A stretch of 64,000 bases of DNA from Tubulanus polymorphus (lineage: Eukaryota > Animalia > Nemertea). Positions 2,041 through 56,287 of the stretch are shown here, one piece after another. The position numbers and the translations under genes were made by a program. The notes beneath the pieces are model-generated. The model had not been told where the DNA came from. It saw only the letters and a program-made list of their open reading frames with translations, and searched no databases. Location: contig NC_134028.1 of the NCBI RefSeq assembly GCF_964204645.1, positions 13,647,653 through 13,711,652 of the forward strand, read 5' to 3'. Every line of letters starts with the position of its first letter. Positions within the stretch are counted from its first letter, which is position 1.

Positions 2041-2509
2041 AGTAATTGGAAAAAGTTGGTTTTCAGATCAAAGGTCGAGAGGTCGGCACATCACTCATTA
2101 CCACTCGTTATCTTTTCCCCTAATAAATGGGACAGTGAACACCAAATAGAAAAAAATGATGTTAATAAAAATTAACATTATTGTCCATATCGTAAAAAAT
2201 ACATCGATAAATCACAAAAATCTCGACATGAAAAAACTGCAAATCATTTAAAAAAATGTTATAGATTTTGAGACACCAGAAAATTCCAATGAAAGAAAAG
2301 TACAATTAGAAAATACGAAAAAAGATGAAATTAAATGTGATGTTTGTAACGAATTTATAAGTAAAAGGAATTATAAAAGACACCTTGAATCACAAAAACA
2401 CCAACAAAATTTAAGTACAAATATTTTAGGAACAGAATATTTTGAAGATAAATTCCAAGTAAAAAAATCTAAAAGCAGATTCAAAACTGAAATATATTTC
2501 AAACAAACC
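2041..2509 (+). mobile_element. Polinton left end of a related subfamily (TIR plus start of pPolB zinc-finger region)
   Basis: Starts AGTAATTGGAAAA, then cctaataaATG and sequence matching RHEKTANH...FETPENSNERK at about 32176-32560. Confidence 0.85.
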
Positions 2510-3652: not shown

Positions 3653-3654
3653 AA

Positions 3655-11880: not shown

Positions 11881-12024
11881 GAATCAATTGTACTTTTAAT
11901 AAATCGGGTATATTCCCCAAAATCAAAGCTAAAATAGTCATTATTTTTAACTATCATAAGCAAGTTATCAGCAGAACAACTTACCTGTGGTAAGCTGTCT
12001 GATGGTTCTATTTTCCTGATTTCT

Positions 12025-13878: not shown

Positions 13879-13999
13879 CTTTCATGTATTTTAGATCTAA
13901 TAAATAAATTCTGGTTTTTAAATTCTTTTAATCTGTAAATAGTGGGATTTTATCTTATTATCCGTTCACCACGTTTGAGTGTGGTCATCGTTCTACCAA

Positions 14000-15655: not shown

Positions 15656-16020
15656 TTAAATCAATTGAATATCCAATATAATTTCTTATTTATAACTTAA
15701 AATTATTAATTGGTGGAATAAAGGTTAAAAATCACATTCAGTTAAATTATAATTTTTTTGTGTACCGAATTGTTTAACATTTTTTAATGGTAAAATACTC
15801 AATATACTAGAATAACAAGTTGTACTTTTATTTGCTTCAAATGTTTTTTGTAGGATCAATGAATTTTCAATAAATATAAAATGTGTAAAAGGTATTAAAT
15901 TTGCTAAACTATCAACATTTGAATAATGTTTATCTGGGTTAATTTCTAACAGTTTATTTAGCTAAAGGTTTTTTATCTAAAAATTGATGTTATTATTATT
16001 AGCATGTAAAAACTATGTAC
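15655..16020 (-). pseudogene. Polinton penton gene fragment
   Basis: Reverse-complement homolog of about 38970-39300 (LIPFTHFIFI...SILSILPLKNVKQFGTQ). Confidence 0.7.
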
Positions 16021-28084: not shown

Positions 28085-29712
28085 TCAAAAGGATATTTCA
28101 AAGCAAACTTTGCCGGGCCAAGAACCATATTGAATTCAATTTTTTCTGAACCACCATGCCCCTTTCATCATAACATAATTTATCGTATTTCAAGATCTTA
28201 GGCCTACCAGTAGAGAGAGGGCCTACGTTGGGTTCAAATCAGAATTTTAAGATTTATTTCATTTAATTCCAGGTTTTCACTGTAGATTATTAAAGACATG
28301 TGGCGTTGTGAGAGTTCATAGTTGTTTGATAATCCATCGTTTGTAAGTGTAAGGCTATTTGAGGGATTCGAAATGGACATTTTGTAGCTTTATTACGTTT
28401 AATTCTAGAAATTCATGACATGGTTCATTTTGGGGGTTTGTCATATGTATTGTGAATTTTTTAGTTGTATTTTGTTTGATTCTAGGTGTTTATCATGAAT
28501 AGGACATGATTCATTTTGGGAGTTTGTCTGCGAGTTTGTATACTGTCAAATGAAGTTTCTTCGTCGTAAGTATCAATCTATAGGTTATATATTAGGGGTT
28601 CGATACAGAAATTTTGTGAATTCCTCAGATTTATTTTAATTCATTCCAGGTTGTTATCAGAAAAATATGTACTTTATTTCATAGGTTGGTCTTTGATTGA
28701 AAACTAAAAATGGATGATAGTTCTTAATTTGATGTTGATTCACATGACTCTAGTAAGTATGGCTCACTCGTCTTTTAGAATTAGAGACCTATTGAATTAA
28801 TCCTTCAATTCAAGTTGCTATACAACCTTTTATACAGATATACCTTATGAATATAAACATGTATTTGCCATTAGCCATAAAATTCAGTAAAACTTTTCCC
28901 GTCCAGATTTTGAAACATCATTTGACTCAATTTTTCCTCCTAGAAAATTGCTTTAGCTCATTCCAATGTTCGCAGTCAATGTGAATTGTAGCATGTATGA
29001 TTCCCATCCATCAATTTTGTCTTGTTTGGTATTTTTAGCGAGATCATCTCGAAAAAGTCTGACGTCGAGGCAGGTGGTGGCCAGAAAAAGAAATATTCTT
29101 GGGAAATATTTAAAGACGCATGGCAAACACACTTATTGTACACTTTTTTCCTATCCTTATTTTTAAATTGAAGTATTGTTATAAACTATTGATTTATTTT
29201 TGTTGATCAACGCAACTAGTTTTGTTGTTTTCTTTCTTAATTTACATTTGATTTGGATGGTCATCTTGCGTAGGAGTCAGTTTGTCATTGAAGCAGTCTA
29301 ACTTGTTGACGTCTCAGATGCAGCGGGGCAGGGCGGTCATTATATTGTGGACTTATCCAAATTACACTTACACAGCCCAACGTGTATTTCCGTCGAGTAC
29401 TGTACCCTTTCCTATGGTTTTTGCCAATATTTTCTAAATTTGGATTGATCGCCAATGGTTTTTCTTTACGACCCGGCCCTGCGGTATTGCATTTAGCCAC
29501 CGGAGAAATCCGCCATCTTTTTTCTTGACGTTCTAGCTTTCAGAACGCGTTGGATTTTTTCGCCATAAAAATCTAGTAATAAGGAATATAAGGGAGTTAT
29601 CACTCTCATAACGGTGAGTCCGTTCGGTTTGAGGGTTATCCCTGGTTTCTATTTTTCCGTAATAATTTTATTTACAAATATAATTGAATCGAATTGAATT
29701 GAATTTATTATT

Positions 29713-31860: not shown

Positions 31861-32090
31861 TCGAATGAATTCTCGGGACCAGTGGGAGGTTGTCTGCAGC
31901 AGGCAGCAACCCGCTGGTCCGACCTTTTCGGAGACGGTTGGCCCTCCCGGGTCGTCTCTCGTGGCTACCGTCTCCGTTTCCTAAGGCGACTGCGCCTGAC
32001 GAGGTCACCTCCCGACATGCGGCCAAAACAAGGTCAGGAGGCCTTAATCACTCCGGCTCTCAAGGAATTGGCCGAGAAGGGAGCGATAGA
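31860..32090 (+). pseudogene. DIRS RT 5' part, cut by the Polinton
   Basis: PVGGCLQ...W...VVSRGYRLRF...ELAEKGAIE, continuing at 49089 as PVCNETSPGWFSRIFMVPK. Confidence 0.9.
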
Positions 32091-32175
32091 AGTAATTGGA
32101 AAAGTAGGCTTTCATACCAGAGGACGAGAGGACGAGACACCACTCATCACCACAAGTAATTTTTTTTCCTAATAA

Positions 32176-35100
32176 ATGGGAGAGAATGAACACCAGCCAG
32201 AAAATAATAATGTTAATAAAAATCAATATTATTGCCAATATTGTAAAAAATACGTCGATACATCTAATAAAACACGACATGAAAAAACTGCAAATCATAT
32301 AAAAAATGTAATAGATTTTGAAACTCCAGAAAATTCCAATGAAAGAAAAGAAAGATTAGAAAATATGAATGCGGATGAAATAAAATGTGAAGTTTGTAAT
32401 GAATTTTTAGTAAAAAGGAATTATAATAGACATCTCGAATCACAAAAACATTATAAAAATTTAAATAAAAATGTTTTAGGATCAGAATATTTTGATGATA
32501 AACCTCAACAAGTAAAAAAATCAACTTCAAAAACTAAATCCATTTCAAATAAACCTTACATGGAAAATGTTAGAAATTATATCGATACAATATCGATAAA
32601 ATTGAAATTTTAGAAACATTACATAGAAAAATTGGTCCTGCAGCCATTATATTTAGATTTTTTAAAGGTACAACAATAGAAGATTATAGTACATTTAATG
32701 AAATAATAGAAAAAAAATACTAGATTTGATAACAGATGTTGAATATCCAAAAGTTAGTATCTCTGGGAAAGTAAGTTTTATAAAGTCAGAAGAAAAAATG
32801 AATTATAATATTCAAACACACTCTGAAGAAATAATTTCAAAAACACAAATAAAAGAGAAGTTAGAAAAAATATTTAATGAATTTAAACGTCATATTGAAG
32901 AAAGATATTTTGAGGGTTCTGGCTTAACATTGAATGAAATTATATATTTAGATTTAAATGTTTATAATACAAAAAGAAATAAAACATCAAAAAGTGATAA
33001 AATGTTTAAAAATGATTTGCAACAAAAGCAGTAATAAATGTTCAAAATGAAGATAATAAATGTTTTCTATGGTCAATCATTAGTTGTTTACACCCAACAG
33101 AAGATATGACGCATAGTTTAAGAATAACAAATTACCGGAAATATGAAACATTATATAAAATTGATCAATATCCAGTAACTATAAAAATGATTCCTAAAAT
33201 AGAAAAAGTTAATAATTTAAAAATAAATGTATTCGAATTAATGCAATTACCAAAGACAAAAGGTGAAAATATTAAAGATTATACATTGGAAGCTTTATAT
33301 TTAACAGAATATTATGATGATGAAAATGCTATAGATTTGTTATATTACAAAAAAGATGAAAATGAACATTATATGTGGTTAAAACCAATTGATTTATTCT
33401 TTAGAACAGAAAGTGATCACCATAATAAAATTTATCTATGTAGAAAATGTTTATCTAAATTTATGACTGAGAATACATTATTAAAACATAAAGAATTATG
33501 TGATAATAAAGATTTTTGTAAATTAATAATGCCAACAAAAAAAGATTGTAAGTTGAAATTTACTAATCATAAATTTAAGAATATTGTTCCATTTGTAATT
33601 TATGGGGATTTTGAATCGTTGAATAAAGAATTAACTGATCAAGATAGAAAAGAAATATATAACAAAAAGCAATTATTAAAATCAATGGATAAAGGAAATG
33701 AATTAAATGAAGATATAATTCAAGACCCACCAATTATAAATACAATTAAAAAAGTTCATCAAAGAGCTGCTGCTTATGGAATTTACATAAAATCAAATTA
33801 TCCTGAATTATATGAAAGTCAATATATTTCTTTTAGAGGTGAAAATGTAGTTAATGATTTTTGTGACAAAATGATTGAATTAAAAAGTGATTTTGCAAAA
33901 TTATTAAACAAAAATAAAAGAATAGTTATGACAAAAGAAGATGAAATTGATTTTAATTATGCAACTCATTGTTGTTATTGTGAAAAACGTTTTTATTCAT
34001 TTGATAAAAAAGTTACAGATCATGATCATTTAAATTCAAAATATCGTGGAGCTGCTCATGAAGATTGCAATTTACAAGCTAAAAAAGTAAATTTCGTTCC
34101 AATATTATTTCATAATTTATCCGGCTATGATACCCATCTATTTATAAAACAATTATCAAAGAAATTGGGTACAATTAATCAAGAAATAGAAGAATATAAT
34201 GCTATGAATGAAGCAAATGTAAGAAAATATGATTTTAAACTATTAGCTAAAACATCTGAAAATTATATTTCATTTCAATTTGGTTGCATTAGATTTTTAG
34301 ATTCTTATAGATTTCTAGCAAGTTCATTAGATAATTTATCAAAAAGTTTAGTTGATAATGATTTTGTTATAACTCGATATTATTATCCAAATGACCAAGA
34401 TTTTAAATTATTGAGATATTAAGGCACAATTCCTTATTCATTTTATAAAACACACAATGATCTAATGTAACAGAATTATTAAAAGATCAATTTTATGATC
34501 AATTAAAAGAGGAGTATGTGAAAGACGAAGTGTTTAATAGAACATTAAATATTGGAACCATTTTAAGATGAAAAATCATGGTGAATTAGTTGATTTATAT
34601 TTAAAATCAGATGTTATGATATTAGCTGACATATTTGAAAAATTTAGAGAAGTTAATTTGAATCATTTTAATGTTGATCCTTGTTATTGCTACTCTAGTC
34701 CTGGTTTAACCTGGCAATGTGGTTTAAAATATACAAATGTAGAATTAGATTTATTAAAAGAAACAGATATTGTTTTATTATTTGAAAAATCAATTAGAGG
34801 TGGAATTAGTGGTGTTATGGGAGATATTTTAAAGCAAATGATGAATATAAACTATTATATATTGACGCCAATAATTTATATGGTTGGCCAATGATGCAAC
34901 CTCAACCATATAAAAATTTTATATTAACAGAAGTTGAAAATGATGATAAAACTAATTGGAAAAGCGCAGTAATGAGTTTAGAAGATGAAGCACCAATTGG
35001 TTATTTCTTTGTAGTTGATTAAGAATATCCTGAAAATATAAAGTTTAAAACAAGAAACTTACCTTATTGCCCAGAACATTTAACTGTAGATGATAGTTAT

Positions 35101-37179
35101 TTAAGTGAATACCAGAAGAAAATAAAACCGAAAGATCATGTTTTTACAGAAAAATTAATACTTACTCAAAATAATAAATACAATTATATTGTTCATTATA
35201 GAATGTTAAAATTTTATCTAAAACAAGGAATGAAATTAAAGAAAGTACATAGATATATTGAATTTAATCAATCGAAGTGGTTAGAAAAATATATAGATTT
35301 TAATACTCAACAGAGAACCATATCAAAAACAGATTTTGAAAAAGATTTCTTCAAATTAATGAATAATAGTTTTTATGGTAAAACATGTGAAAATATTAGA
35401 AATAGAAATGATATTGAATTAGTAAATAATTCTGAAAGATTAAGACATTTACAATCAAGTCCTAGACATTTAGGAAATAAAAGATTTGAAGATTATTTAA
35501 CAGCAGTTAAATTAAAAAGAACTTCAATGAAATTTAATAAACCAATATTTATAGGTTCAACTGTTTTAGAAATATCAAAATTATTAGTGTATGATTTTTA
35601 TTATAATGTTTTACAACCACTTTTTGGGGAAAAGCATATTGAAATATTATATTTTGATTCTGTAACAGCTGACACCCCAATATTATTAAAATGTAATAAT
35701 AAAATATTGGTAAGAAGATTTTCAGAAATAATTCCACAACAAAATGAATGTTATATTTCATATGGTGAAAAAGAATTAATACAAATAAATGGATTAATGG
35801 ATGTTTGGACAAGAAATGGATGGAAAAAATTAAAGAATATTATTAGGCATAAAACAAATAAGAAAATCTATAGAGTTAGAACTAAATTAGGATTTGTAGA
35901 TGTTACAGAAGATCATAGTTTAATAAAACAAAATGGTGATGAAATAAAACCAACTGATATAAAAATTGGAGATGAATTATTACATAAAAGATTTTTCCAA
36001 AGAATGAATCAAATGTCATTTGATGAAATTATTGATAATATTTATAATATAGAACCCAAAACATTAGAAGAAAAAGAATATTTTATCAAAGGATTTTTCA
36101 TGGGCGATGGTTCAGCAGGTGTGTATAATTATGTTTGGTGTAATAAATATTGTTGGTATTTATGCAATCAAGACTTAAAATTATTAGAAAGAATAAAGAA
36201 ATTCTGTGAAGAAGTTTATCCAAATAAAACATTTAAAATCATGGATGTTATGAAATCATCAGCAGTTTATAGAATACTTGTGAATAATCCTAAAGATTTT
36301 GCTATAAAATATAATGATGAATTCTATATTCATGCAATAGTAAAAAGTAATACTTCAACTAAAGAAAAGATAGTACCAGATTATGTATTAAATGCAAAAA
36401 ATAATTTAAGAAAATGGTTCTTCATTGGATTCTATGCCGCAGATGACACTACAAAATTTACAAAGGATAAAAAGATAACCTTTGCACAGAAAGGAAAAGT
36501 TGCTATATCAGGATTGAATATATTATGTAATTCATTAGGCTTCAATATGAATATTCGGTTGATTAAATCTAAACCAAATTGTTTTAATTTAAGGCATGTA
36601 GAAAAAGAATTAACAGAAGAAGTTAAAGATTTATTTGAAATATATAACCCAACTGACTATGTTTATGATTTATCAACAGATGATGGAACATTCAATTCTG
36701 GGTTCCCATTAATCCAAAAAAATACCGACAGTTACATACTAAAAATCAAGACAAATGACATAACAAAAGACTTAAAAACATTAAAACATCATTTTGATTT
36801 TAGCAATTATCCCAAAGATCATGAACTATTTAGCAATGATAATAAAAAGATTCCTGGTAAATTTAAAGATGAATTAGGGGGTGATGAAATGATTGAATTT
36901 GTTGGGATAAGAAGTAAAATGTATAGTTACAGAACAAAAGATCATGAAGCTAAAAAGTTAAAAGGAATAACAAAACATGTGGTTGATAAACATATAGAAT
37001 TTCAAGATTATATAAAGCGTTTATATAAATCAATTGTAATGAAACACAAAATGAATTGTTTAAGATCAGAAGATCATGAGATGTACATTAATGAAGTTGA
37101 AAAAACTAGTTTAAATCCATTTGATGATAAAAGGCATATTTTAGATGATGGTATAAAAACATTACCTTATGGTTATTAA
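32176..37179 (+). pseudogene. Protein-primed DNA polymerase B with N-terminal zinc fingers, OTU-like and endonuclease VII-like domains, and an intein; several stops and frameshifts
   Basis: C2H2-like fingers; DNKCFLWS at about 33050; YGDFES; DHDH...RGAAHEDCN; FHNLSGYD; FLDSYRF; DANNLYG; KLMNNSFYGKT; YFD/TDS; GKFKDE; KMYSY; FDDKR...TLPYGY. Confidence 0.95.
35659..36723 (+). mobile_element. Intein with LAGLIDADG homing endonuclease (355 aa) in pPolB motif C
   Basis: YFD|SVTADTPIL; block B VTEDHSL; FIKGFFMGDG and FIGFYAADD; block F VYDLSTDDGTF; end IQKN|TDS. Confidence 0.93.
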
Positions 37180-38492
37180 AACATAAAATCAATATCATCA
37201 TAATCGAAATCACTATTGGCTTCTTCATTTTCATTTAATTGTTCAGGTTCTTCTTCCATTCCATTTTTCTCATTTAAATAAAGTTCTATCTTGTTCCACA
37301 TTTCATCTCGCTCTCTTTGTTTCTTTTTGTTTGTTAATTCATCAAATGGAATTATAATATCTATGTTTAAATAACTTACAATCTTATTTAAAAAGAATTC
37401 ATAATTAATTGAATCTGTTATTCTATTTTCCAAATGATACAATAATATTTGTTTAAATATTTTTTTAATATTTTCCATATCTTCTTCTGTTAATTTAGGT
37501 TTTTCATAATAATCGTTAAATAATAAATATAAATACATTTTCTTTTCTTTTGTGTTAAATGTTGACGGAATAATTGTTTTTATAATATCTTTTTAAGTTA
37601 TTTCACCATTTTTATTTTCTATTATTTTCATTTTTTCAAGCCATTGCATATATTCTGGTGTATGATCTTCTATAGAAAATATTTTAAAAATTTCATCTAG
37701 ATAATTTAATTTTGGATCTATGAGAAAATTCCTAGTTTTTTCTTCACTCCATAAATTCTTTTGCCATCCACATTCATTACAAAATAACACAGTACCTTCT
37801 TGCCTTAAGGTCGCGTAACTACATTGGGGACATTTTCGTTTATAATTTATTGGTAATAGATCTTCATTAAGCTCTTGGTATTTTCTTACGTTTTCTTTAT
37901 GTTTTATTGTTCTATTATGTAGATTTGAATTACTTGTTGTAATAATCAATTTACAATATTTACAATAATATGTTTTTCTTGTTAATATATTATATTGTTT
38001 TTCTAACTTTTCAACTGTTTCTTTATTATCTGGTAACGTTTTCTCATATTTTATTTTTTCTAATAAATTATCTTTTCTTTCATTGAATTCAGTTTCAAAT
38101 TTATTAGAAATTTTATCTATATGTGCTTTACGAAATTGATGATTCTCCCAATCTTCTATATTTTCAGGGCTATATTTTATTCGACAAGGCTCACAGAAAT
38201 GATCTTTTATATTATCCTTGTCATAGAATAAGAAAGGTCTTTTCCAAATAACTTCAGGTTCAACTTCAACAGAATTACTATTACTTTCATTACTATCAAC
38301 ATTAGCCGTCGTGCCATTAATTTTACACTTCTCTGAATGTTTTTTAACATAATTTCTTGAGAATAATTTATCACATTTTGGGCAGTTTATTTTAGGGGGT
38401 TTATAATTTTCATCATGTTTTTTCGTATGTCGAGCCATATTACTTTTTCTTAGAAGTTCACCACAAATTTCACATGCTATCTTCTCATCCAT
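37176..38492 (-). CDS. Polinton multi-zinc-finger protein (ORFs 37593-38492 and 37176-37538 are probably one frameshifted gene)
   Basis: Repeated CxxC...H motifs (CEIC..RH..H, CPKC, CEPC, CKYC, CPQC..CNEC). Only the upstream ORF has the TAAATG start motif. Confidence 0.6.
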
Positions 38493-38560
38493 TTATTTAG
38501 GAAAAATTTTATTAAAATTAATTTTTAGTGATGAGCGGTAATTTTTTTATGTTATAAATA

Positions 38561-39349
38561 ATGGTAGAATTAAAAGAATACAGAATATTTGTTGATTCAA
38601 GAAGACTTACGAATTATAAATCACATGATTTATTAGTTCAATTAGATAGAGAATTTAAGAATTGTGTAGATTTAAAATTAGTTAATATAAGTTTATGTAA
38701 CTCTTTTTACAATATATCAGATAAAACTGATGAACATTGAAGCCTTTTTATTTTTGATAAGGATAAAAGAAAAAATTTTCAACTTATGCTTACACCAGGA
38801 TTATATAATTTAGAAACATTAGAGCAAGAAATTAATAGAAAAGCTCGCATTAGATAAGGTAGTGATTCTAAATTTAATATTAAATTCATAAAAAGTGAGA
38901 GCTCTAATAAAATTAAAATAAAGTTTGATAATGATTATTATAAACTTTATCAACATACAATAGAAAGATATCTTTACATGGTAAAAAAACCTATAGCTAA
39001 ACTGTTAGGAATTCCTCCAGATAAAGATATTAGAGAAAACATATACGGTAGATCGAACTTAATACCTTTTACACATTTTTATATTTATTGCAATTTAATT
39101 GACCCAACAAAAACATTTGAAGCAACTAAAGATATAACTTGTAATTCTAGTATATTAAATATTTTACCATTAAAAAATGTTAAACAATTTGGAACGCAAA
39201 TAAATTATAATTTAACAGAATGTGATTTTAAACCTTGCATTCCTAAATTTAATAATTTTAAATTAGAAATAAGAAATCATAATGGATACTTAATTGATTT
39301 GAATAACTTTCCTGTGATATATGAATTAATTATAAGATGTAAAGAGTAA
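38561..39349 (+). pseudogene. Probable minor capsid (penton) protein, frameshift near 38950
   Basis: IFVDSR...NSFYNI...PGLYN...FYIYCNLI...ILNILPL...LEIRNHNG.LIDL...V.YEL.IR, a Polinton penton-like pattern recognised by eye. Confidence 0.7.
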
Positions 39350-39365
39350 TTTTTTCATTATATAA

Positions 39366-39725
39366 ATGAATATAACTGTTGGACCGAGTATATGTTTTGG
39401 GTTTGATTTTAAACGTGAGAAAGAAATTAAATTTAACATTAATGATGTAATTACACATATCAAAAATATTGCATTTTCTAATGAAACAACATTTGAGTAT
39501 GAAACAACAATAGATAAAGAAACTTTTAATGTAGAAAAGATTACTAATTTAATTAGAGAATCTTTAAGATTTTATGAATTAGATGAAGATTTTATCATCG
39601 ATGATATAAAAAAAATAATAATTGAAATATATACAAATGAAACTAGTAATGAAATAAATGTTGAATTAATCATCACTAAGATAACTAAATATTTTGAAGA
39701 TAGTAATTTTTTGATTAATAAATGA
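39366..39725 (+). CDS. Polinton hypothetical protein (119 aa)
   Basis: Open ORF with the shared T-run/TAAATG start. Confidence 0.6.
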   Translation: MNITVGPSICFGFDFKREKEIKFNINDVITHIKNIAFSNETTFEYETTIDKETFNVEKITNLIRESLRFYELDEDFIIDDIKKIIIEIYTNETSNEINVELIITKITKYFEDSNFLINK

Positions 39726-39943
39726 GTGATAATAAGTGGATAATAACTGGATTATATAATGGAGCATTACTATCAGTTGGAACTGTTGGTTATTCAATGG
39801 TATTAAAAAAAGTATTCAAAATGGGAAGTGTTAATGTTGATAGATTTGATATCAATGATATTTTAAAATTAACATTAGCAGTTACTTTATCTAATTTAAC
39901 AATTGATTATTTGGAAAAACAAAAATATATTCCTCCCATATAA
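39722..39943 (+). CDS. Polinton small hydrophobic protein (73 aa)
   Basis: Two hydrophobic segments; TAAATG start overlapping the previous stop codon. Confidence 0.65.
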   Translation: MSDNKWIITGLYNGALLSVGTVGYSMVLKKVFKMGSVNVDRFDINDILKLTLAVTLSNLTIDYLEKQKYIPPI

Positions 39944-39967
39944 ATGCATAATTTTTTTGCTAAATAA

Positions 39968-40323
39968 ATGGCTTCTGCAATTATAACTATTATAGGATCG
40001 GCAATTGTTAACGCTTTTGCATTTGCTGGTGGTGGTTATTTATTTAAACATATTGATAAAAATGGATCATTAACAGAACAAAAAAGACATAACTTAGCAT
40101 TAGAGAAATATGATAACGCTGCAGAAGAATATAGAGAAAAGAGACAAAACTATAAACTAACAGTTTATATAACGCGGTAACCAATAAAGAAAAATTACAT
40201 CTATACAAACCTAAATTATCAGATTATTATACCCCAAGTAAAGAACAACAGAAATATGAAATAATATGGATTTTAGGCGGAACTGTTATTGTTATATTTG
40301 TTGCTTATAAATTTACTAATTAG
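39968..40323 (+). pseudogene. Polinton small membrane protein (disrupted)
   Basis: N-terminal hydrophobic MASAIITIIGSAIVNAFAFAGGGYLF; C-terminal TM IIWILGGTVIVIFVAYKF in another frame. Confidence 0.6.
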
Positions 40324-40342
40324 TAATTTTTTTTCTAAATAA

Positions 40343-40777
40343 ATGGAAGATAAAGTTGATAATAATGATATTATTCCTCATGATATAAATAAAACTAAAT
40401 TAAAAACATATTTAGAAAAACAAATATTAGAATTTGAAAGTGACTTTAAGAAAAAAAAGAAAAAATATTTAAAAAGTAAAATTATATATTATTTGATTAT
40501 AAGTGGTTCGGTTACAATTAGTTCTGTAATAACATTTTTAGCAATATTCAGCTCATTAACACCTTTAGCTATATCAATTGGCGTATTAGGATTAAGTTCA
40601 AGTGTTTTAACTGGTATAAGTTCAAAATTAAATATAAAAAGTAATAAAGAAAAAATTAAAACTAATATAAAAGAAATTAATAAATAAAAGAACACACTAG
40701 ATTATATAATAAGTTTAAATGGTCATATAACAGTTGAAGAACAAGATAAATTATTAAAAGAATTAATAAATTATTAA
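40343..40777 (+). pseudogene. Polinton 2-TM protein (in-frame stop at 40685)
   Basis: Two hydrophobic helices. The frame continues KNTLDYIISLNG after the stop, as in the homologous fragments. Confidence 0.65.
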
Positions 40778-40793
40778 TTTTTTAATTATATAA

Positions 40794-42182
40794 ATGGTAG
40801 ATAGTTTTCCAAAAGCTTTCCAATATAATAAATCAATTAAATATAATATTCCAGCAATAGATTTTAATAAAGATATTACATATAGAAATGAAGTTTTAGA
40901 TTCATTAACTAATTTAGAAATTTATGTTACTGAAACTAATAATTTTAATGCAAAGATGGAAAATATATTTCATGTATATTTAATTGATTTTAAAAAATTG
41001 AAAGATGAAAAACAATGGTTATTAAAATCTAATATGAAGTATTGGCAGAACCAATTAAATTTAGCTGTTTATTGTGCAACAACAGGTTGTGGAATTAGTT
41101 GGAATGATCATTTGAATAATTCTAAATATAAATTAATTCAAAGTTTATTTAGATTTCATACATACTTTCAAATAAGATTAATATTAAATGAATTAGAGTG
41201 TCCTTTACCAGGATCTAGGTATTTTAATAAATTAGATAATAATATTAATTTGTCAAAGTTTTATAAAATTTGTAATGAATTTAATATAGATATAAATAAT
41301 TCTGATTTTAGAACGAAAATTGGAACAATAAGATCACTTCCTTGCCCTAAAAAGATTGCAGAATATTGTGCACTTCCCATACCATCTAATAGTTTTTATA
41401 ATATCTATAATAATAATTTAAGTTATGGTAAAATAGAAACTAAGGATTTAGAAACATTAAATTTCAATAAATTACCGACATTTTATGATAATTTAAAACA
41501 AGAAAACAATAATGGTTGGGTTTATTTCATTTTAGAAAATAGTGAAGGTTTTACTAAATCAGGTATAGAAAGAATAAATCAATCTATTAGAACTTATTTG
41601 ATATGTATTTTAGGTGCGCAAGTTGAAACGAGATCCCCAATAATTGGAAATTTAAATACATCATTTGATACACAGAAACAATTCAAAGTATTATTTGAAG
41701 ATTCAATTCATAATGATAAAAATAGATCGATTCCGGAAAACATTGTAAGATATCAAAATTATTTAGATAAATCTCATGTAAGACTAAATTATTGCATAGG
41801 CCCTAATCTATTAACTATTTCTAATGATTTAGTATTAAAGATGGGAAACATAATTGGTTATAATAATCTAATTAAAACTGCAACAATAAATAATTCATTT
41901 GGATTGAATGATATAAATAATAAGATAATTTCTGCTCCAAAATTAATGGAAGGTGAAAAAAATAAAAAACATATTCAATCAACAGAAACTAAAACTAATA
42001 ATATTAAATTAAATAATGATTCTAAAATAAAAGATTACAATACATCAGAAAATATTAGAACTGATAAAATTCAACATGAAATAATTAAACTAAATGATGA
42101 TAATAAATCCCATGAAAATACTAAATTAGCTTTAACTTGTATAGGAATTGTAATCGGAGGAAAATTATATTTTAAATTTTAA
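40794..42182 (+). CDS. Polinton hypothetical protein (462 aa) with a C-terminal hydrophobic anchor
   Basis: Intact long ORF; WQNQLNLAVYCATTGCGISW block; function not recognised. Confidence 0.75.
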   Translation: MVDSFPKAFQYNKSIKYNIPAIDFNKDITYRNEVLDSLTNLEIYVTETNNFNAKMENIFHVYLIDFKKLKDEKQWLLKSNMKYWQNQLNLAVYCATTGCGISWNDHLNNSKYKLIQSLFRFHTYFQIRLILNELECPLPGSRYFNKLDNNINLSKFYKICNEFNIDINNSDFRTKIGTIRSLPCPKKIAEYCALPIPSNSFYNIYNNNLSYGKIETKDLETLNFNKLPTFYDNLKQENNNGWVYFILENSEGFTKSGIERINQSIRTYLICILGAQVETRSPIIGNLNTSFDTQKQFKVLFEDSIHNDKNRSIPENIVRYQNYLDKSHVRLNYCIGPNLLTISNDLVLKMGNIIGYNNLIKTATINNSFGLNDINNKIISAPKLMEGEKNKKHIQSTETKTNNIKLNNDSKIKDYNTSENIRTDKIQHEIIKLNDDNKSHENTKLALTCIGIVIGGKLYFKF

Positions 42183-42198
42183 TTTTTTTATTATATAA

Positions 42199-43632
42199 AT
42201 GGATGTAGAAGGTGGAGAAGATATTAGAATGGATCCTTTTGATGAACCTGGTATAAGTGATGAACAACCACCTGATTTTGATGAAACAAGTTTTAATGAT
42301 GGTAATGAGCACGGATATAATAATAATTTAAATATGCCTGATTATATTAAAAATGCAGAATCACAATTAAATCCTGAAAATTTAGACCCAGGTTTAGTAA
42401 AAGAAGATTTAGATAATTTAAACAAAATACCTAAATTAGAAGATTTAATTGAAAAATCTAAACTTAACATAAATGATGAAGACGTTGGACTTTTAGCATA
42501 TCAATTAAAATTTTTAGATAATGGTAAATGTTATTATCGTTTGAAAGGTGATTATTATATTGATATCACTTCCAAAAATAATAAAAAAATATTAGCGGAA
42601 TCAACTTTGAAAAGTTTAAAACCAGATAAAATTAAAAGAATAAGTAATAGTTATGAAATAACTGATGTTACACAAAAAGAAATAGATGATAATATAGACG
42701 TATTTAAACAAAGAATTAATGAATTATTTGAAATAATCAAATAGAAATCAGAAACAGAAACAACTTCTGAACAGAATATAACTTCCAAAACTAGTAAACT
42801 TAAATCAAATAAAGTTTCAATTGAAAAACTTTTACCGAATGGATTAATTGATGCAACAGATCAACAATTAGAAGATTTAAATATATTTTCTGATGAAGCA
42901 ATTAGAGAAATTATTAGTATAAGAAATGAAGCTGATAAAATTGCACATAATAAAAGTATAAGAGATCAAAAAATTATGTATTTGGAAAAAGAATTAACTA
43001 ATGCAAATAAAGAAATAGAACAACTAAAGTCTGATTTAGATCATCAAGTAATTGATGAAATAGAATATAGGCAAAAAGAATTACGTTTAGAAAAAGAAAT
43101 TAATAATTTAAAAGATAATTTAGAAGTACAAGAAGAAGAAATTAAATTATTATTAAAATCATATGATTATAATATTAATAGATTAAAAGTTATTTTTAAA
43201 GATTTGTTGATTAAACCAAATTCTGAAATATCATTAAAAGATAGAATAAAGTTATTATTTAAATTAGAAGGAATAACAATTCTTTCAATTCTAACAGCTG
43301 TAACTATGTTATTTACAACAATTGGTTTAGCAATATCAAATGCTTTAAAATCTACTCCTACTCCCAATAAACCAGATAAACCCCCAGATAATAATTCTAT
43401 ACAAGATAAAGTTAAGGATGGTTTAAAGAAATTAGCAAAATATTTATGGGAACTATCTAAAAAATCTGCTGCAGCATTGCCAGGAGTTATTGCATCAATT
43501 GTTGGTTTTATATTGAAATCTGCAGGAAACATTATTAACTTTGCTGCTGAACATATTATTTTATTTTTAATTACAGTTGTAAGTGCTATTATTTTTGGTT
43601 TAGTAAATATGATATCAAAAAATATCAAGTAA
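42199..43632 (+). pseudogene. Polinton coiled-coil, multi-TM protein (one in-frame stop at 42742)
   Basis: ORFs 42199 and 42976 share a frame with no further stop between them. Acidic N-terminus, coiled coil, 2-3 hydrophobic helices. Confidence 0.7.
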
Positions 43633-43672
43633 ACATGATCAAAAATAAATAATTAATTTTTTTGTTATATAA

Positions 43673-44919
43673 ATGAGTGGGAGTTATATCAATCCTTCTA
43701 GGAATCATAGAATATCTAATGCTATTAAAGCAGAAAGATCACATCATATAATTACTCATAACCCTTCAAATATTAATCCCGATGAAACTTTATATGTTAG
43801 AATTCCTAGATTAACACAAAATACTTTTTATGTTCCAAATAGTATTTATTTATCAGCCGATATAAAAGTAACGGGCCATGATAACAATTATGTTGTTGAT
43901 AATGTTGGGAGATATTTGATTAAAAAATTAACTATAAAGATTGGTCCAGAAACAGTTTTCTCATTAGATGATTATAATTTATTTATGCATTATAAAGATT
44001 TATGGTTAACTAAAGAAAATAGAAATAATATGATATTTCAAGGAATCCAATCAGAAAACCATAATAAATTAAGATCAGGAGCTAATGACGCAATAGTAAC
44101 TCGTGCCACAGATAATTTGATTAAAAAGATTTATGGAAGCAAATGTAAAATTCCATTAGACTTTGAATTGATAAATAATAATGCACCTTTATATAAATAC
44201 GCAATTCAAGAAGATATTATATTTGAGATAACATTTGCTCCTGTAAATGAAATTGTATTATCTAGCGTTGTTAAAGATATGGGTTATAAATTATCGAATA
44301 TATGTTTAGAATATAACACAGTAACTAATGAAAATATTGCTAGCACAATTCAAACTCAATGCAATCAAGGATTTTCATTATTATATGATTATATTGATAA
44401 ATTTAAAACTGTAACTATTAATGCAAATGATGAAATAATTAATGAGAATATTAACTTCCCAAGAAGATCTATTAAAGGTATATTAATATTTTTTACCATT
44501 GCAACATATACTAATGGTGCAATAAATGTTGATAATTATTATAATCCTGAAATAACAAAAGTAGAAATAACTATCGAAGGAATAGCAAATAAAATATTTT
44601 GTCAAGGAATGAGAATGATAGATCAATGGCCAGAAATTAGAAAACATTTTATGAATGAAAAAGTAAAATCATCTGAAAATTGTAATACTAATCAAATTGA
44701 TTATTATACCGGTAATAAATATGCATTATGGTTAGATTTTAGAACAACAGAGGATAATTCATTACATGGTTCTGGGAAAAATTACAAAACACTAAAGATG
44801 GAATACAATTATTCATGAAAAAGAAAAAAGGAAGCCTAAATTTCAAAATGCACATTTATATTATATCTGACGCGCAATTAAATATTGTAAATTCACAGTT
44901 AGATAGTATTCAATATTAG
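43673..44919 (+). pseudogene. Probable major capsid protein (frameshift near 44780)
   Basis: About 415 codons, beta-rich pattern, located just before integrase and ATPase; second copy at 4355-5370. Fold assignment is inference. Confidence 0.65.
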
Positions 44920-44949
44920 AAATATAAAGTTAAAATTAACGATATATAA

Positions 44950-46077
44950 ATGGGAGGTAAAAAAACTCTTAATACTAAAGAACAATATATAAGAAATTTA
45001 TATTACAACCCTGAGAGTTCGGTTGCTTATTCTTCTACCAAAAATATATGGCGTCAAGTAAAACAAGATAAATTAGATAAGATAATCCCACAAAATTTAG
45101 TTAAAAATAAAGATATAAATGAATTTATGTTAGAACAACCAACATACACAACACATAAAAAAATTGTTAGAAAATATAAAACTCGTAAAACTATGGTAAG
45201 TTATGTAGATCAACAGTGGCAAGGAGATTTAATTGATATGAAAAATGTTAAGAAAGGCAATGATGATTATTGGTGGTTATTGAATATAATTGATATTTTT
45301 AGTCATTATGTATGGAGCTTCCCACTTTATAGAAAAGATGCTGTACAAACATCAAATGTTTTAAGAAAATTTCTTTCGGATGATAAACTAAAACCAGAAA
45401 AAATACAATTTGATGATGGAAAAGAATTTGATAATTCACTTGTTCATGAACTCTTAGATAATCATAATATTAAATATTTTTCAACAAAATCGGATAAAAA
45501 AGCAGCAGTTGTTGAACGATTTAATAGAACATTAAGAACAAGAATGTGGAAATATTTTACAGCCAATAATACTTTTAAATGGATTGATGTTTTGCCAAAA
45601 TTGATAGAAGGATATAATAATTCTTATCATTCTTCTATTGGAATGAAACCTATTGATGCTAGAAAACCTGAAAATGCTGAAATTGTTTGGAATAATTTAT
45701 ATGGAGCATTTCTTGTAGATGATTTTGGTGAACCTAAATTTAAAGTTGGTCAAAATGTTAGAATTTCTAAGTATAAAAAGATATTTGATAAAGGATACGA
45801 TCGAAATTTTACCAGAGAAATATATAAAATAAAAAAAGTAATAACAACAAAACCATATGTCTATAAATTAGAAGATTTAGATGGTGAAGAAGTTGATGGC
45901 TACTTTTACGAAGAAGAATTAAGTTTAACTACTGAAAATCTAGAACAAGAGTATAAGATTGAAAAAGTATTAAAAACAAAAACTACTAAAAGAAAAAAAT
46001 ATTCTTTAGTAAAATGGGTTGGATGGCCAGATAAATTCAATGAATGGATATTATCAAGTAAAATTAAAAATATATAA
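44950..46077 (+). CDS. Retroviral-like integrase with a C-terminal chromodomain
   Basis: QWQGDLIDM, IDIFS, IQFDDGKEF, VERFNRTL, YN...HSSIGMKP; chromodomain YKIEKVL...LVKWVGW...NEWI. ORF intact. Confidence 0.95.
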   Translation: MGGKKTLNTKEQYIRNLYYNPESSVAYSSTKNIWRQVKQDKLDKIIPQNLVKNKDINEFMLEQPTYTTHKKIVRKYKTRKTMVSYVDQQWQGDLIDMKNVKKGNDDYWWLLNIIDIFSHYVWSFPLYRKDAVQTSNVLRKFLSDDKLKPEKIQFDDGKEFDNSLVHELLDNHNIKYFSTKSDKKAAVVERFNRTLRTRMWKYFTANNTFKWIDVLPKLIEGYNNSYHSSIGMKPIDARKPENAEIVWNNLYGAFLVDDFGEPKFKVGQNVRISKYKKIFDKGYDRNFTREIYKIKKVITTKPYVYKLEDLDGEEVDGYFYEEELSLTTENLEQEYKIEKVLKTKTTKRKKYSLVKWVGWPDKFNEWILSSKIKNI

Positions 46078-46677
46078 ATGAATAAGGAATTATTTATATT
46101 TGAGCCTCATAATATGTTAATTTCTGGCGTAACAAATTGTGGAAAAACTTATTTTATATTAAATTTATTAGAAACTGTTTATGAAAACTATTTTGATAAT
46201 ATAGTATTATTTTGCCCAACCTATGAATTTAATCAAACTTATAATAGAAATATTACTAGAAATAATAAATTTATTATATTAGATCCTAAAACAGTAAAAG
46301 ATAATTGTATAAAAATAGCAATTGATATTTATAAGGGATCAAATACATTATTCATTATAGATGATTGTGCTAATCTACATGATTCAAAAGTTAGAGAAAG
46401 TGAGTTATGTTATTTAGCTTTTTCTGGCAGACATTTTGGGATAACAACTTGGGTTTTAAATCAAAAATATAATTCAATTGTTAAAGATTTTAGGGAGAAT
46501 ATAAGATTTCTAGTTTTATTCTACAATAAAGATAGAAAATCGATGAAAAATGCACTTGAGAAAAATGATATTATTCCACATGATTTACATAATGAATATA
46601 TGGATAAGTTGAAAAATATTAAAAGATCAAAATTACTATTTAGATTACAACACCCATTTACATATGAATTTATTTAA
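46078..46677 (+). CDS. A32/FtsK-like DNA packaging ATPase
   Basis: Walker A GVTNCGKT, Walker B FIIDD, GRH motif, Q...REN. Confidence 0.92.
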   Translation: MNKELFIFEPHNMLISGVTNCGKTYFILNLLETVYENYFDNIVLFCPTYEFNQTYNRNITRNNKFIILDPKTVKDNCIKIAIDIYKGSNTLFIIDDCANLHDSKVRESELCYLAFSGRHFGITTWVLNQKYNSIVKDFRENIRFLVLFYNKDRKSMKNALEKNDIIPHDLHNEYMDKLKNIKRSKLLFRLQHPFTYEFI

Positions 46678-46680
46678 ATT

Positions 46681-46950
46681 CAACTGGCTTATTAATCTAG
46701 TTGAATTCTAGTTACGTTCTAGTTGAATTCTAGTTATTGGTAGTTGGAACAAAAATCAACTAGATTTAACAATATTTTAACTAGCTTGTTAATCTAGTTT
46801 AATTCTAGTTACATTCTAGTTGAATTCTAGTTGTTAGTAGTTGGAACAAAAATCAACTAGATTTAACAAGAAATAAACAAAAACAACAGTATTTCAACTA
46901 GCTTGTTAATCTAGTTGAATTCTAGTTACATTCTAGTTGAATTCTAGTTG
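46681..46950 (+). repeat. CTAG-rich tandem repeat inside the Polinton
   Basis: Three copies of aactagcttgttaatctagttgaattctagttacattctagttgaattctagtt. Confidence 0.9.
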
Positions 46951-46981
46951 CAACAACACAATTAATTTTTTTGTTATATAA

Positions 46982-47569
46982 ATGGGAGGTGAAAAGAAAA
47001 TAAAATCTAAAAATGGTGATGTTCCAATTGAAAAAACTTTAGATGATTTAGGAATAACAGAAAACAAATTAATTCCAGATGATGGTGCTTTAAATAATGT
47101 TACAACAAATAATAATTATGAATATTATCTTTATTGTAAACATCAATTAGAAATATTAATAGCATCTGGAAAATGTAAAAATTTTGTCGGTAAAAATTTA
47201 ACTTATAATGAATTAGATACAATGAAATCAGATGAAATTATTAGATTATTTAAGATTTATGAAGCCGCGAGAACAGCTAGAATTAATGACGCGATATCAG
47301 AAAATGTAGTAAAAGGTTATAGTAAATTATGTAATTATATACGTCCAATTGAAGATGAAAATAGATTATATTCCGATTTAAAAAATGACTATTTAGTTAT
47401 GACTGAATTAAATAAATGGATTGGATATTTATCATTTCAATTAGGCGGATTTATGACATTATTATCAACTGGGGTTATAACATTTTCAAATATTGAAAGT
47501 AAAAATATTTCTATAATAAATGAGCGAGGTGAAAGAAGTGAAGGAATTTACTGTGAAGAAAAAACCTAG
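46982..47569 (+). CDS. Polinton hypothetical protein (195 aa)
   Basis: Intact ORF with TAAATG start; homolog fragment at 3440-3650. Confidence 0.7.
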   Translation: MGGEKKIKSKNGDVPIEKTLDDLGITENKLIPDDGALNNVTTNNNYEYYLYCKHQLEILIASGKCKNFVGKNLTYNELDTMKSDEIIRLFKIYEAARTARINDAISENVVKGYSKLCNYIRPIEDENRLYSDLKNDYLVMTELNKWIGYLSFQLGGFMTLLSTGVITFSNIESKNISIINERGERSEGIYCEEKT

Positions 47570-47888
47570 ATCACAGAAACAAATTGAATGGTCTCGGCAA
47601 TTAGGAATTAAATCACAAGAATATAAAAAAGCTGTAAAAGAAAAAATAAGTAATAAAAATGTTAATAAAAATAGTGAAAATATTGTTATTTCTACTCCTT
47701 CTGATAATAGAATATTTGATAAATATTTATATTTTACAGTTGGATTTGTAATTGTATTCATTTTGATTGGGTGTAATTGGTATAAGAAATCAAATAAAAT
47801 TCATGATATTAATAATTCTGAAACAACTGCTATTAAAAATGAAAATAGTTCTGAAATTCCAAAATTGATAATAAAAAAAATGGATTAA
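47520..47888 (+). CDS. Polinton basic single-TM protein (122 aa)
   Basis: KKKPRSQKQIEW N-terminus and TM YLYFTVGFVIVFILIGC; homolog at 3095-3440. Confidence 0.7.
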   Translation: MSEVKEVKEFTVKKKPRSQKQIEWSRQLGIKSQEYKKAVKEKISNKNVNKNSENIVISTPSDNRIFDKYLYFTVGFVIVFILIGCNWYKKSNKIHDINNSETTAIKNENSSEIPKLIIKKMD

Positions 47889-48062
47889 TATTTTAGAAAA
47901 AAGCAAAAAAAATAATTTTTTTTTAATTAATTGAATATCTCACTACTTTTGTCTATCACTGTGTGGGTGCTGTTTATGGCACCATCTATGCGGAGCAATT
48001 AAATTGTCCAGATAAGTCATTTCGGATTCTAGATATTCATTATTTTTATTATTTTATTTTTT

Positions 48063-48389
48063 TAAATTTTATCAACAATTTCTAAATCATGATGTCCATC
48101 TTCATTTTTTCCATGATATATTATTTTAAATCCTTCTAAATCTTTTAATTCCTCTGTACTCAATGAAACCCATTTATCAGGTAAAAATACTTTAAAATCT
48201 CGCGATGTACTAACATTACAGTAGCTTTAAATAGCTGATACTTTCTGTCCATATTTAGTTTTTATCTTTTCTAATTTCAATATTTTATGTTCAATTTCTT
48301 TTCATCAACTAACTTTTTTATTTCAAATTGTTTTTTGCTGGTTTTATTCTGTTATTTATTGTTGCTAAGAATGCTTTTCTATCTCCCAT
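48063..48389 (-). pseudogene. Polinton small protein (MGDRKAFLA...), disrupted
   Basis: TAAATG start; homolog at 2588-2910 with the same KIKTKYG...VF/AFLP.KWVSL...MY/IYHGKNEDGHHD sequence. Confidence 0.6.
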
Positions 48390-48524
48390 TTATTAGGAAA
48401 AGAAATTACTTGTGGTGAAGAGTGGGGATTACTTCCCCTTGTATATAACAAACACGCTATTAACCGTTCTCACCCAAGCTTCACAGCATCTATTAGGAGC
48501 AGTAATTATAACTGTCCAGATAAG

Positions 48525-48746
48525 TCATTTCGGTTCCTTGATATCAAATTCCTCAACGTATTGTTCATTATTTGGATCATTTTGGATCATCCATAATTCA
48601 ATAAATTTCTTTGCCTTTGTTAACTGTTCTAAATATAACTGTAAATCTAGTTTATTAGATTTGATTTGATTTTCTTTCTTTTCTAAAGGCCGTAAATTTT
48701 TCCAACCCCACATAAGTTTTTTATTGTATTCATCATTCCTTTCCAT
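48525..48746 (-). pseudogene. C-terminal fragment of an HNH-type endonuclease
   Basis: WKNLRPLEKKEN..KS.K; homologous to the longer copy at 55690-56287. Confidence 0.6.
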
Positions 48747-49088
48747 TTATAAGGAAAACAAATTACTTGTGGTGATGAGTGGGGATTACTTCCCCTGTAT
48801 ATAACAAACACGCTATTAACCATTCTCACCCAAGCCTCACAGCATCTATTTATCCGGGTACAGTTGACACGCAATCACTGTACTACAGTAATAGCACACG
48901 CGTTAATAACCGTTCTCAGTAGAGACTCACTGTATCAATCTATCCACGCGCAGCTGTTGTTACGCGGACTCACTGTATATGTGTGTCACAGAGCAATCGT
49001 CCGTTCTCACTAGAGCCTTGCTGTGATGAGTGGTGTCTCGTCCTCTCGTCCTCTGGTATGAAAGCCTACTTTTCCAATTACTGATAGA

Positions 49089-51735: not shown

Positions 51736-53837
51736 AATATTTATGTTGCATTATCAGGATCACAGGGGGTGTATCCATGTACATAGTTTGGGCTCATATC
51801 CACAACTATTAATTTCGCAAAATTCGGGGGGGGGGCTGAGCTGGACGGACTCACTGTGGCCAACCAGTCTTCCCTGTGCTACAGTGTTCCTTTCCGTGCT
51901 TGGGTAAGTGCTCTCTTTTTCCCTCTTACCTTGCGTTTGAGCGGTGGTTTTTCTACCTTTCCCACCATCCTTGTGCTAGGCTAGTCTAGCAAAAACCATA
52001 GGTAAGGGTACAGTACTCGACGGAAATATGACAATTTTTGGAACTAAAATTTGTATTTCCGAGTAGTACTTATCCTTTCCTATGGTGGGAATCCCGCCCA
52101 CCGGCCCAGCATAGCTGCATTTTTTGGGTCTGCTATGACGTAAAAAGATGGCTGATTTCGCCGGTGGCTAAATGCAATACCGCAGGGCTGGGTCGTATAG
52201 AAAAACCATTGGCGATCAATCCAAATTTAGAAAATATTGGCAAAAACCATAGGAAAGGGTAGGTACTACTCGGAAATACAAATTTTAGTTCAAAAAATTG
52301 TAATTTCAGTGTGTAAACTCTGTCGTAATGGGCATTATAAGACAGTGAGGAATTGAGTTTTAGCCACCTGAGCCCTCGGCTTGATTCGAGCAAAAAGATC
52401 CTTAACTGACTTCACAGAATTTGATTATGAGTCAAGGATTTTCTAAATTTCTGAATGCTTCCTCTGGTTTTAAGATCAATTCAAATTCAATCTTCAATAC
52501 ATAAAAATTAGTCAAAATTTTTTTTATTTTATTGAAAGAAATTCTACGGAAGACAGATTTTGAAATGAAGGATATATCCAGGCATATAATTACAGCAAAA
52601 TCAACTGATGATCATCAAGGTGAAGTTTTCATTCATCTTCGGCTAATTTGTCTACCCCTGATGATTGAAGCATTTTGGTTACTCGCGCCAATTAGTCAGC
52701 CACAGTCGATTTTCATGCCATCTGACCTCTTTCCATCTGTAATTAAGCAATCAAAAGTAAGAATTACTTAGTTGAGGAGCGAAATGAAATATAGATATCT
52801 CAGGAGACTAATTTAAATCATGACTTTGTTGTGGAAATCTATTACTACAGTCTCGAGGAGCATAGACACCAAGCCACGTGGCATTGGTATTTTAAGGGCT
52901 ATTCAGTTTACTCCAAAACAAGTCTATGATTAACATTAAAGAAAGCTTCATATCAAGGGTATGTCACAGGACTCATGACGCCCATGAATTATCATCCCAT
53001 AATAACAATGAATCCAATCCTGCATGTACGTTAGCACGACTGATTACTAATCCAAATATTGTATTACAAAAAAACAATTACGCAAAACGTCAAGTACTTA
53101 CAGCATCTGAGACAGTTGCACTTCAGTTAGAGTGTTAAGTTACGCCTTTGACTGTCAATGTCGAAAAAGCCTAATTTGAAACATGCATTTGCGCACTGTG
53201 GTTTAATATTCCTGCAAGAATCCGCAAAGGAATTGAAGACCGTAGTGACCAGTGACCAGACCAGTTCAATCCACGAATAATAGCTGGAAAGAAAGTAATC
53301 AAAATAAATTGCCGTGCACATTCAGTGTAAACCAGGCCATAACTAGCTGCTGTTAAGGCATTCCACTGACTGGCTCTAACCACTATATTAAGGGCCTAAA
53401 TCTATTCTAGGTGCATCCCCTAAAAAAGCTAATTTAGGCATTAAGTAAGTAGCCAACAACGATCATTGCTTCACCGAGTACTCATTTGCTAACATACTCA
53501 TATTATTAAAGAAATCATTTAATACATTCCCTGGTTAAAGGATTCTCACCTTAAAATACATAAACTCCGCTGTCGTTGTCATCGATCCGAGTCGTGAACT
53601 GAACGCGGAAGTAAAATTCCGTGTGAAAGTTCCTACAATTTCTGACCATATCACGTTGATTTGAGCCCGAAATCTTCAGATAATGTAGCCAACGTAAATT
53701 TATTTACGAATAGAATTAATCAATTGACTCATTTAAGAAATCATGGTTACGTGAAATTCATTTAGGTCCTAAAACTCGCGATAAATTTAAGCCGAAAATG
53801 ATTTCAACCATCCACGCGCCGGCACTGTACTGATATG

Positions 53838-55689: not shown

Positions 55690-56287
55690 AAATGTTCAAA
55701 GTGTGAATTAAGTCAACAATCTTCAGAATATTATAACGATAAGACTAAGAAAGATGGTAAGCAAAGTTATTGAAAAAGTTGTAAACAAGTATATATGAGA
55801 GATTGGAAAAAAAGATAATAGAGAACATGTTAAACCGTATCAAAATAATTATCATAAAGAAAAATATCAAACAGATCTTACTTTTAAATTGAAACAATGT
55901 TTAAGATCTAGATTAACGTAATTATTCAATAGAGAAACGCATTCAGTTACACTATCTAATTTGTTGGGTTGTTCAGATGAATTCTTAAAATCATGGATAA
56001 TATATCAGTTTGATGATAAAATGAATCTAAATAATTACGGAGATTATTTCCCCATTGATCATGTTTTACCAATATCGAAATTTAACATGAATTATGATTA
56101 CAATAAAAAGCTAATTTGGAATCAGAAGAATTTAAGACCTCTTGAAAAGAAAGAAAACATGAGTAAATCTGACAAACTAGATTTACAATTATATATAGAT
56201 CAGCTGGTTAAAGTAAAGACATTTATTGAATTATGGAATAGTTCACCACAGAATGAATCGTACACTGAGACTTTAATCAGCTGTTAG
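55690..56287 (+). pseudogene. Decayed HNH-type endonuclease resembling those of large DNA viruses
   Basis: KKCSKC...KDG.QSY..SC; LRSRL; LGCS..FLK.WI..QF...MNLNNYG...IDHVLPIS.F...NLRPL...EN.SK. Confidence 0.7.

Follow-up and report, generated by a model that had tools for sequence, protein, structure and literature searches.

A poxvirus late promoter-like motif at the gene starts of a Polinton in the nemertean Tubulanus polymorphus

Several small, integrating double-stranded DNA viruses have no RNA polymerase and carry the promoter of a large virus on their genes, among them Mavirus, Sputnik and the Polinton-like virus (PLV) Gezel-14T (PMC6428243; 10.1101/2022.07.28.501842). Sputnik and Mavirus share the late promoters of their helpers, and Mavirus also has an integrase and is silent when integrated (PMC6428243). 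Here we describe a similar signal in a Polinton/Maverick that occupies positions 32091-49082 (16,992 bp) of a 64,000-nucleotide stretch of the Tubulanus polymorphus genome (NCBI RefSeq GCF_964204645.1, contig NC_134028.1, positions 13,647,653 to 13,711,652, forward strand; hereafter the window). A TAAATG motif stands at its gene starts, usually behind a T-rich tract. The motif is real, strong and lineage-specific, and its sequence supports a promoter-like role as opposed to a fused terminator-promoter. The helpers of Mavirus, Sputnik and Gezel-14T are mimivirus-type viruses of protists with other motifs (PMC6428243; 10.1101/2022.07.28.501842), whereas the Tubulanus element has a Polinton-type capsid and no protease match.

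Mavericks, Polintons and adintoviruses resemble the element in their terminal inverted repeats (TIRs), 6-bp target-site duplication (TSD), protein-primed DNA polymerase (pPolB), integrase, capsid and A32 ATPase, and VLTF3 has already been published for some polintoviruses; however, no promoter motif is given in the available text of these sources (PMC8502044; PMC11131425; 10.64898/2026.06.19.733378), and many relatives are motif-free. No Polinton virions are known. A further parallel is provided by PLVs found in entomopoxvirus occlusion bodies and proposed to be Polinton-like hyperparasites of poxviruses (Barth et al., PMC11296320). There the evidence is co-occurrence in occlusion bodies and the lineages are highly diverged; they are compared here by description, and "promoter" and "transcription" have no occurrences in the main text of that paper. 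"Promoter" is also absent from the texts of PMC8502044, PMC11131425, 10.1101/2023.10.16.562556, 10.64898/2026.06.19.733378, 10.1101/2024.03.23.586382 and 10.64898/2026.10.13.758929. Searches for Polintons together with promoters or poxviruses, in literature other than subscription papers and Repbase notes, yielded no paper on a TAAATG motif in Polintons among the matches listed.

A sequence-only reading of the window had reported TAAATG at 15 gene starts and a variant, TAAATAATG, at a sixteenth (38561), and every coordinate proved right. The sites, together with one in a related fragment at the left end of the window, are as follows.

32157..32178, plus strand: T-rich promoter-like motif at the zinc-finger start of the likely pPolB gene, with no element gene upstream
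38490..38511, minus strand: motif at the start of a zinc-finger/VLTF3-like gene, divergent
38539..38563, plus strand: motif variant TAAATAATG (TAAAT 3 nt before the ATG at 38561), divergent
39347..39368, plus strand: motif whose first TAA doubles as the stop of the upstream open reading frame (ORF)
39704..39724, plus strand: motif with its upstream part displaced by 1 nt, within the preceding ORF
39949..39970, plus strand: motif
40324..40345, plus strand: motif of a SLATT-like membrane gene (Pfam below cut-off)
40775..40796, plus strand: motif of a conserved 462-aa gene
42180..42201, plus strand: motif whose first TAA doubles as the stop of the upstream ORF
43654..43675, plus strand: motif of the major capsid gene
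44931..44952, plus strand: A-rich form of the motif, integrase gene
46059..46080, plus strand: A-rich form of the motif, packaging ATPase gene; within the integrase coding sequence, the TAA of TAAATG being the integrase stop
46963..46984, plus strand: motif of a conserved 195-aa gene
47500..47522, plus strand: A-rich form of the motif, within the preceding ORF
48387..48408, minus strand: motif in a subterminal repeat copy, ahead of a broken ORF
48744..48765, minus strand: motif in a subterminal repeat copy, ahead of a 73-aa ORF
2105..2129, plus strand: related left-end fragment (2041-2524, 81% identity), TAAATG kept, T-run eroded

The gene starting at 38561 has no assignment and is possibly a minor capsid gene. 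A subterminal duplication (48386-48850, spaced 356 bp) holds two motif copies and is related to TIR-adjacent sequence.

The motif exceeds background, with TAAATG at 15 of 16 starts against 5-7% in composition-matched controls of the same element: TAA precedes 31 of its 651 other ATGs, and 31 of 452 (6.9%) other first ATGs after a stop (binomial p 6e-17). Collapsing the three related terminal sites (32176, 48389 and 48746) left 13/14 (p 1e-14). Internal in-frame ATGs, which had been proposed as a control, are invalid for this purpose because TAA is a stop in that frame. The site matrix (n=16) extends well beyond the start codon, with T at -19 (14 sites), A at -18 (14) and A at -17 (15), a T-rich stretch from -16 to -10 that includes T-14 (16/16) and T-13 (13/16), A at -4 (16/16) and G at +4 (11/16). 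The T-rich element stands at a fixed spacing, 7-13 nt upstream of TAAAT. Runs of at least five Ts within -20 to -8 were found at 11 of 16 starts but at only 3 of 31 non-start TAAATG words (Fisher p 6e-5), so that a T-run does precede most starts, as had been noted; exact TTTTTNT, however, is present at only seven, and the sequences upstream of 44950, 46078 and 47520 are A-rich. The pattern TAAWWT-N10-TAAATG has 13 matches in the element (null mean of 0.43 and maximum of 3 in 200 simulations), all of them gene starts, and none in the rest of the window, although it was derived post hoc from the same sites. The sites are also partly dependent, 43673 and 46982 being near-identical upstream. For the left-end fragment near 2125, said to keep the motif, this holds for TAAATG (ATG at 2127) but not for the T-run; in the five aligned start copies among window fragments, TAAATG is kept in two and lost in three.

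Chance, arising from the 76% AT composition or from the selection of starts, had to be considered because the element is very AT-rich and several sites are near-identical copies. It was refuted by the composition-matched controls and its probability is negligible: start calls are consistent with homologue N-termini in the related locus L001, and AT-rich relatives exist without the motif (L019, 0/4).

Capsid alignment retrieved 81 related loci, 68 of which had at least one homology-checked start. Among the 15 loci with at least four checked starts, TAAATG was found at 80-100% of starts in six (10/10, 4/5, 4/4, 7/7, 4/4 and 6/6) and at none in nine. The split does not follow base composition, as motif-free loci include some of 26-29% GC (L018, L019 and L043) and motif-bearing loci reach 44% GC (L005). 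For pooled comparisons, 21 motif-bearing and 21 motif-free loci were used (42/81, near-duplicates and short or decayed loci being dropped); since these sets were picked by motif, the contrast of 48/51 with 0/47 is a description of the split and not a test of it. At -3, T stands in 48/51 motif-bearing starts and A in 33/47 motif-free starts, T-13 is present in 44/51 versus 22/47, and G+4 occurs in 33/51 motif-bearing starts. The motif is kept within another gene's coding sequence in 17 cases. It occurs across capsid proteins only ~35% identical and, in a capsid tree of 39 rows (proteins of at least 300 aa, 9 near-duplicates dropped), in two well-supported groups (12 and 5 rows) plus the long branch L050, with a single origin not rejected (approximately unbiased test, p-AU 0.07); L014 was counted as motif-bearing by clade, its own first-ATG count being 0/2. 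Viral contigs searched with capsid or ATPase queries gave no relatives.

In three relatives (L051:4272-4299, L056:1303-1324 and L029), divergent genes overlap at their 5′ ends, each TAAATG promoter lying within the other's coding sequence. TATA-like words often occur within ~15 nt of the ATG in motif-free L032, L035 and L043; by a crude count they are not commoner in motif-free loci (19/47) than in motif-bearing ones (21/51).

Vaccinia late promoters overlap the start codon with TAAAT plus G and conserve a T, one of several, 10 nt upstream; its intermediate promoters are AT-rich 15-19 nt upstream (PMC11980589). The same TAAAT followed by G, conserved T in a T-rich stretch and AT- or A-rich variant farther upstream are described for late and intermediate promoters across vaccinia, mpox, salmon gill poxvirus and entomopoxvirus (PMC11980589, PMC4542343, PMC3061580). 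The Tubulanus motif matches on each point, with TAAAT(G) over the start codon at 15 of 16 sites plus the one TAAATAATG, and a conserved T ~10 nt upstream of TAAAT in T-rich sequence; the comparison is with the text description of poxvirus promoters, not with poxvirus DNA. The claim of poxvirus late promoter architecture is supported: sequence and spacing fit the vaccinia late/intermediate consensus, the motif is lineage-specific, and U at -3 is unlike the mostly A at this position in motif-free relatives. Unlike the poxvirus promoters, it sits in a 17-kb integrating element in which no RNA polymerase was found, and it serves every element gene, polymerase and integrase included, with no early class. 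A division into two promoter classes, T-rich late and A-rich intermediate, was tempting but rejected, since two of the A-rich sites (46078 and 47520) fall inside coding sequence, which confounds the distinction.

Two other systems provide context. The yeast cytoplasmic virus-like elements pGKL1/2 are linear and AT-rich, with a TAAAN initiator and slippage-made 5′ poly(A) leaders, but they have their own polymerase and capping enzyme and an early-type upstream element, and are not capsid-coding integrants (PMC6211774). Polymerase slippage at TAAAT adds a poly(A) head (PMC6211774, PMC4542343). The initiator of African swine fever virus is TATA, unlike TAAAT (PMC7163114).

The element itself (~24% GC) is a decayed copy with stops and frame breaks. 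It is bounded, as Polintons are, by TIRs and a 6-bp TSD, and a Pfam scan of 25 window ORFs, together with homologues, gave the following features.

32085..32090, plus strand: left TSD, GATAGA
32091..32150, plus strand: left TIR, 60 bp, perfect
32176..37179, plus strand: pPolB gene in several broken frames (Pfam DNA_pol_B_2 weak, on a fragment)
37176..38492, minus strand: zinc-finger and Pox_VLTF3-like gene, broken near 37593 (PF04947, E 1.3e-6, above cut-off)
43673..44818, plus strand: major capsid protein ORF, 381 aa (Capsid_N weak; 570 homologues)
44950..46077, plus strand: retroviral-type integrase with chromodomain (rve, E 4e-10, above cut-off)
46078..46677, plus strand: A32-like packaging ATPase (Pox_A32, E 3e-11)
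49023..49082, minus strand: right TIR
49083..49088, plus strand: right TSD, GATAGA

Capsid and packaging ATPase are thus both represented, as are pPolB and integrase, since the pPolB fragments match relatives' proteins that themselves pass Pfam. The capsid ORF is truncated by a late break, given that close homologues have 414-420 aa. The last polymerase frame contains an intein (Intein_splicing, E 8e-6; LAGLIDADG_3, E 0.001), whose LAGLIDADG-like domain is below the Pfam cut-off; the intein (35203-37179) apparently splits the polymerase catalytic motif, as judged by eye. The Pox_VLTF3 match spans 37179-37538 on the minus strand, and since this VLTF3 piece and the zinc-finger ORF at 38492 are each matched by the homologue P0122, the two are one gene. 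Foldseek placed VLTF3 proteins in the top rows for this piece (E ~0.01), led by those of poxviruses and closely followed by VLTF3s of other giant viruses; searches of the PDB with it by sequence and by fold, and a PHROGs search with 12 ORFs, gave nothing useful, and the structure predicted for the 119-aa ORF at 39366 was too poor to use (pLDDT 35). No Pfam match to an RNA polymerase, TBP, TFIIB or protease was found in the 25 ORFs, several of which have no assignment. The presence of VLTF3 and the absence of a protease match indicate that the element is probably a group 2 Maverick-Polinton.

Judged from its sequence, the element probably owes its transcription to the RNA polymerase of a poxvirus-type helper virus that infects the same cell, in a Mavirus-like virophage lifestyle, and a helper polymerase is, on balance, the simplest reading of the shared promoter signal. 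The helper polymerase would read a gene-start signal consisting of an A-rich part (-19 to -15), a T-rich part (-16 to -10) and TAAATG at the start codon. If vaccinia is a guide, initiation would occur within the AAA, slippage would add a poly(A) head that replaces the upstream U and leaves almost no templated leader, and the T-run would be an upstream promoter element and not a terminator. Like integrated Mavirus, the chromosomal copy would stay silent for as long as no helper enters the cell. Because pPolB, integrase and the VLTF3-like factor all stand behind one signal, the element would lack an early class of genes and be unable to launch a cascade by itself. The lack of an RNA polymerase match fits such a lifestyle.

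Several results weigh against a helper of this kind. Scanning viral contigs for the motif yielded 77 single matches, mostly without TAAATG-rich neighbours, and no helper candidate; 13 ORFs from 4 of these 77 loci had no poxvirus family match; and neither the window ORFs nor 72 ORFs scanned in relatives included a poxvirus polymerase subunit. The VLTF3 fold match is too weak to name a donor, and TAAATG is short and A/T-rich, so that convergence is possible. Testing for avoidance of AATAAA and splice donors did not separate motif-bearing from motif-free elements. Finally, the model would require a cytoplasmic virus to wake a nuclear copy.

The same motif could instead be an element-specific core promoter with very short leaders, used by the host's RNA polymerase II in the nucleus, perhaps with the aid of the zinc-finger/VLTF3-like protein. 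This is rather unlikely, although the element does integrate in chromosomes, belongs to a high-copy family (14,974 contigs in run X1) and encodes a VLTF3-like factor. That factor's gene is itself behind the motif, and VLTF3-like genes are also present in motif-free L032 and L035 (below the Pfam cut-off), on which ground the idea that VLTF3 causes the motif was rejected. U at -3 of an mRNA is a poor start context by the Kozak rule, whereas motif-free relatives have A; and AATAAA occurs 72 times in 14 kb of coding sequence, with no avoidance, although avoidance is likewise absent from AT-rich motif-free loci. If, on the other hand, the motif were a host or lineage translation-start context, or reflected stop-start coupling, it would have no promoter role. 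The enrichment of G+4 (11/16 window starts) and an abutting upstream stop at one window gene and 5 of 82 sites in relatives are consistent with this, but TAA is seldom a real stop; conservation at fixed spacing reaches -19, past a ribosome context, and the motif is common to capsid proteins that share only about a third of their residues (~35% identity). We regard this explanation as very improbable.

The sequence-only reading had also proposed a fused terminator-promoter in which the T-run, as TTTTTNT or poly-T, is a stop signal for the upstream gene. This half of the proposal was not upheld and now seems improbable. In its favour, tandem genes leave little space between them, the upstream ORF stops at the first TAA of the motif at two window sites, a T-run follows the last plus-strand gene, and TTTTTNT is scarce in the coding strands of motif-bearing relatives (27 observed, 54.1 expected, ratio 0.50). 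Depletion is also seen in motif-free relatives, however (31 versus 43.8 expected, 0.71), and is not significant in the window (9 versus 12.4, 0.72). An exact T5NT does not follow each gene, as it would for a poxvirus early terminator: TTTTTNT is limited to 7 of 16 window sites, two of which (32176 and 38561) lack a nearby upstream same-strand element gene, and within 100 nt of convergent gene ends it was found in 4 of 28 cases in motif-bearing and 6 of 28 in motif-free relatives. Nor is the T element confined to starts with a gene upstream to stop, since divergent starts, which have none, carry it as often; in relatives, T-14 was found at 21/24 divergent versus 31/47 tandem starts, and TTTTTNT at 5/24 and 11/47, respectively. 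Moreover, TTTTTNT is an early signal (PMC3061580), whereas the promoters here are late-type.

The surroundings of the element are repetitive. The Polinton is inserted in a GC-richer element (29403-52261, inverted ends at 29403-29522 and 52142-52261), which we take to be a DIRS-like retrotransposon from its motifs; its ORFs gave no matching Pfam hit. A second such element (~9000-12900, minus strand) has RVT_1 and Phage_integrase matches. Related Polinton fragments of 74-87% identity lie at 8-5370, 6881-7192, 13998-15974 and 56089-56237, and the thousands of diverged contigs in runs X1-X3 indicate that the family is high-copy. In four related elements a palindromic repeat spacer follows the ATPase stop, its place but not its sequence being conserved:

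Window 46678-46962: palindromic spacer
L001:9096-9351: palindromic spacer
L007:3717-3837: palindromic spacer
L002:3163-3275: palindromic spacer

The window copy folds at z -5.6, and the spacer is a possible terminator hairpin or replication/packaging site. Deoxynucleoside kinase genes were seen in two motif-bearing relatives (L001:10343-10981 and L006:2898-3377), the former with 38 homologues, none named viral. A Bcl-2 family gene adjoins the capsid gene in a motif-free Polinton (L035:2448-2858, E 2e-18), and L081 is a Polinton fragment within an archaeal metagenome-assembled genome record, probably a binning contaminant.

The motif bears on the way Polintons are transcribed, and on their autonomy or dependence on a helper virus. 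A genome-wide poxvirus-type promoter offers a test that is direct and cheap, and its sequence can serve as a tag to separate Polintons likely to be helper-dependent from those likely to be transcribed by the host. We hold it an even call that at least two Polinton lineages are virophages of poxvirus-type viruses, in which host-type promoters were swapped wholesale for poxvirus late promoters and which lie silent in chromosomes, each marking an undiscovered poxvirus-like virus in its host. If this is true, endogenous virophages would extend from protists to the hosts of Polintons, mostly animals, and the motif would point to unknown poxvirus-like viruses in those hosts.

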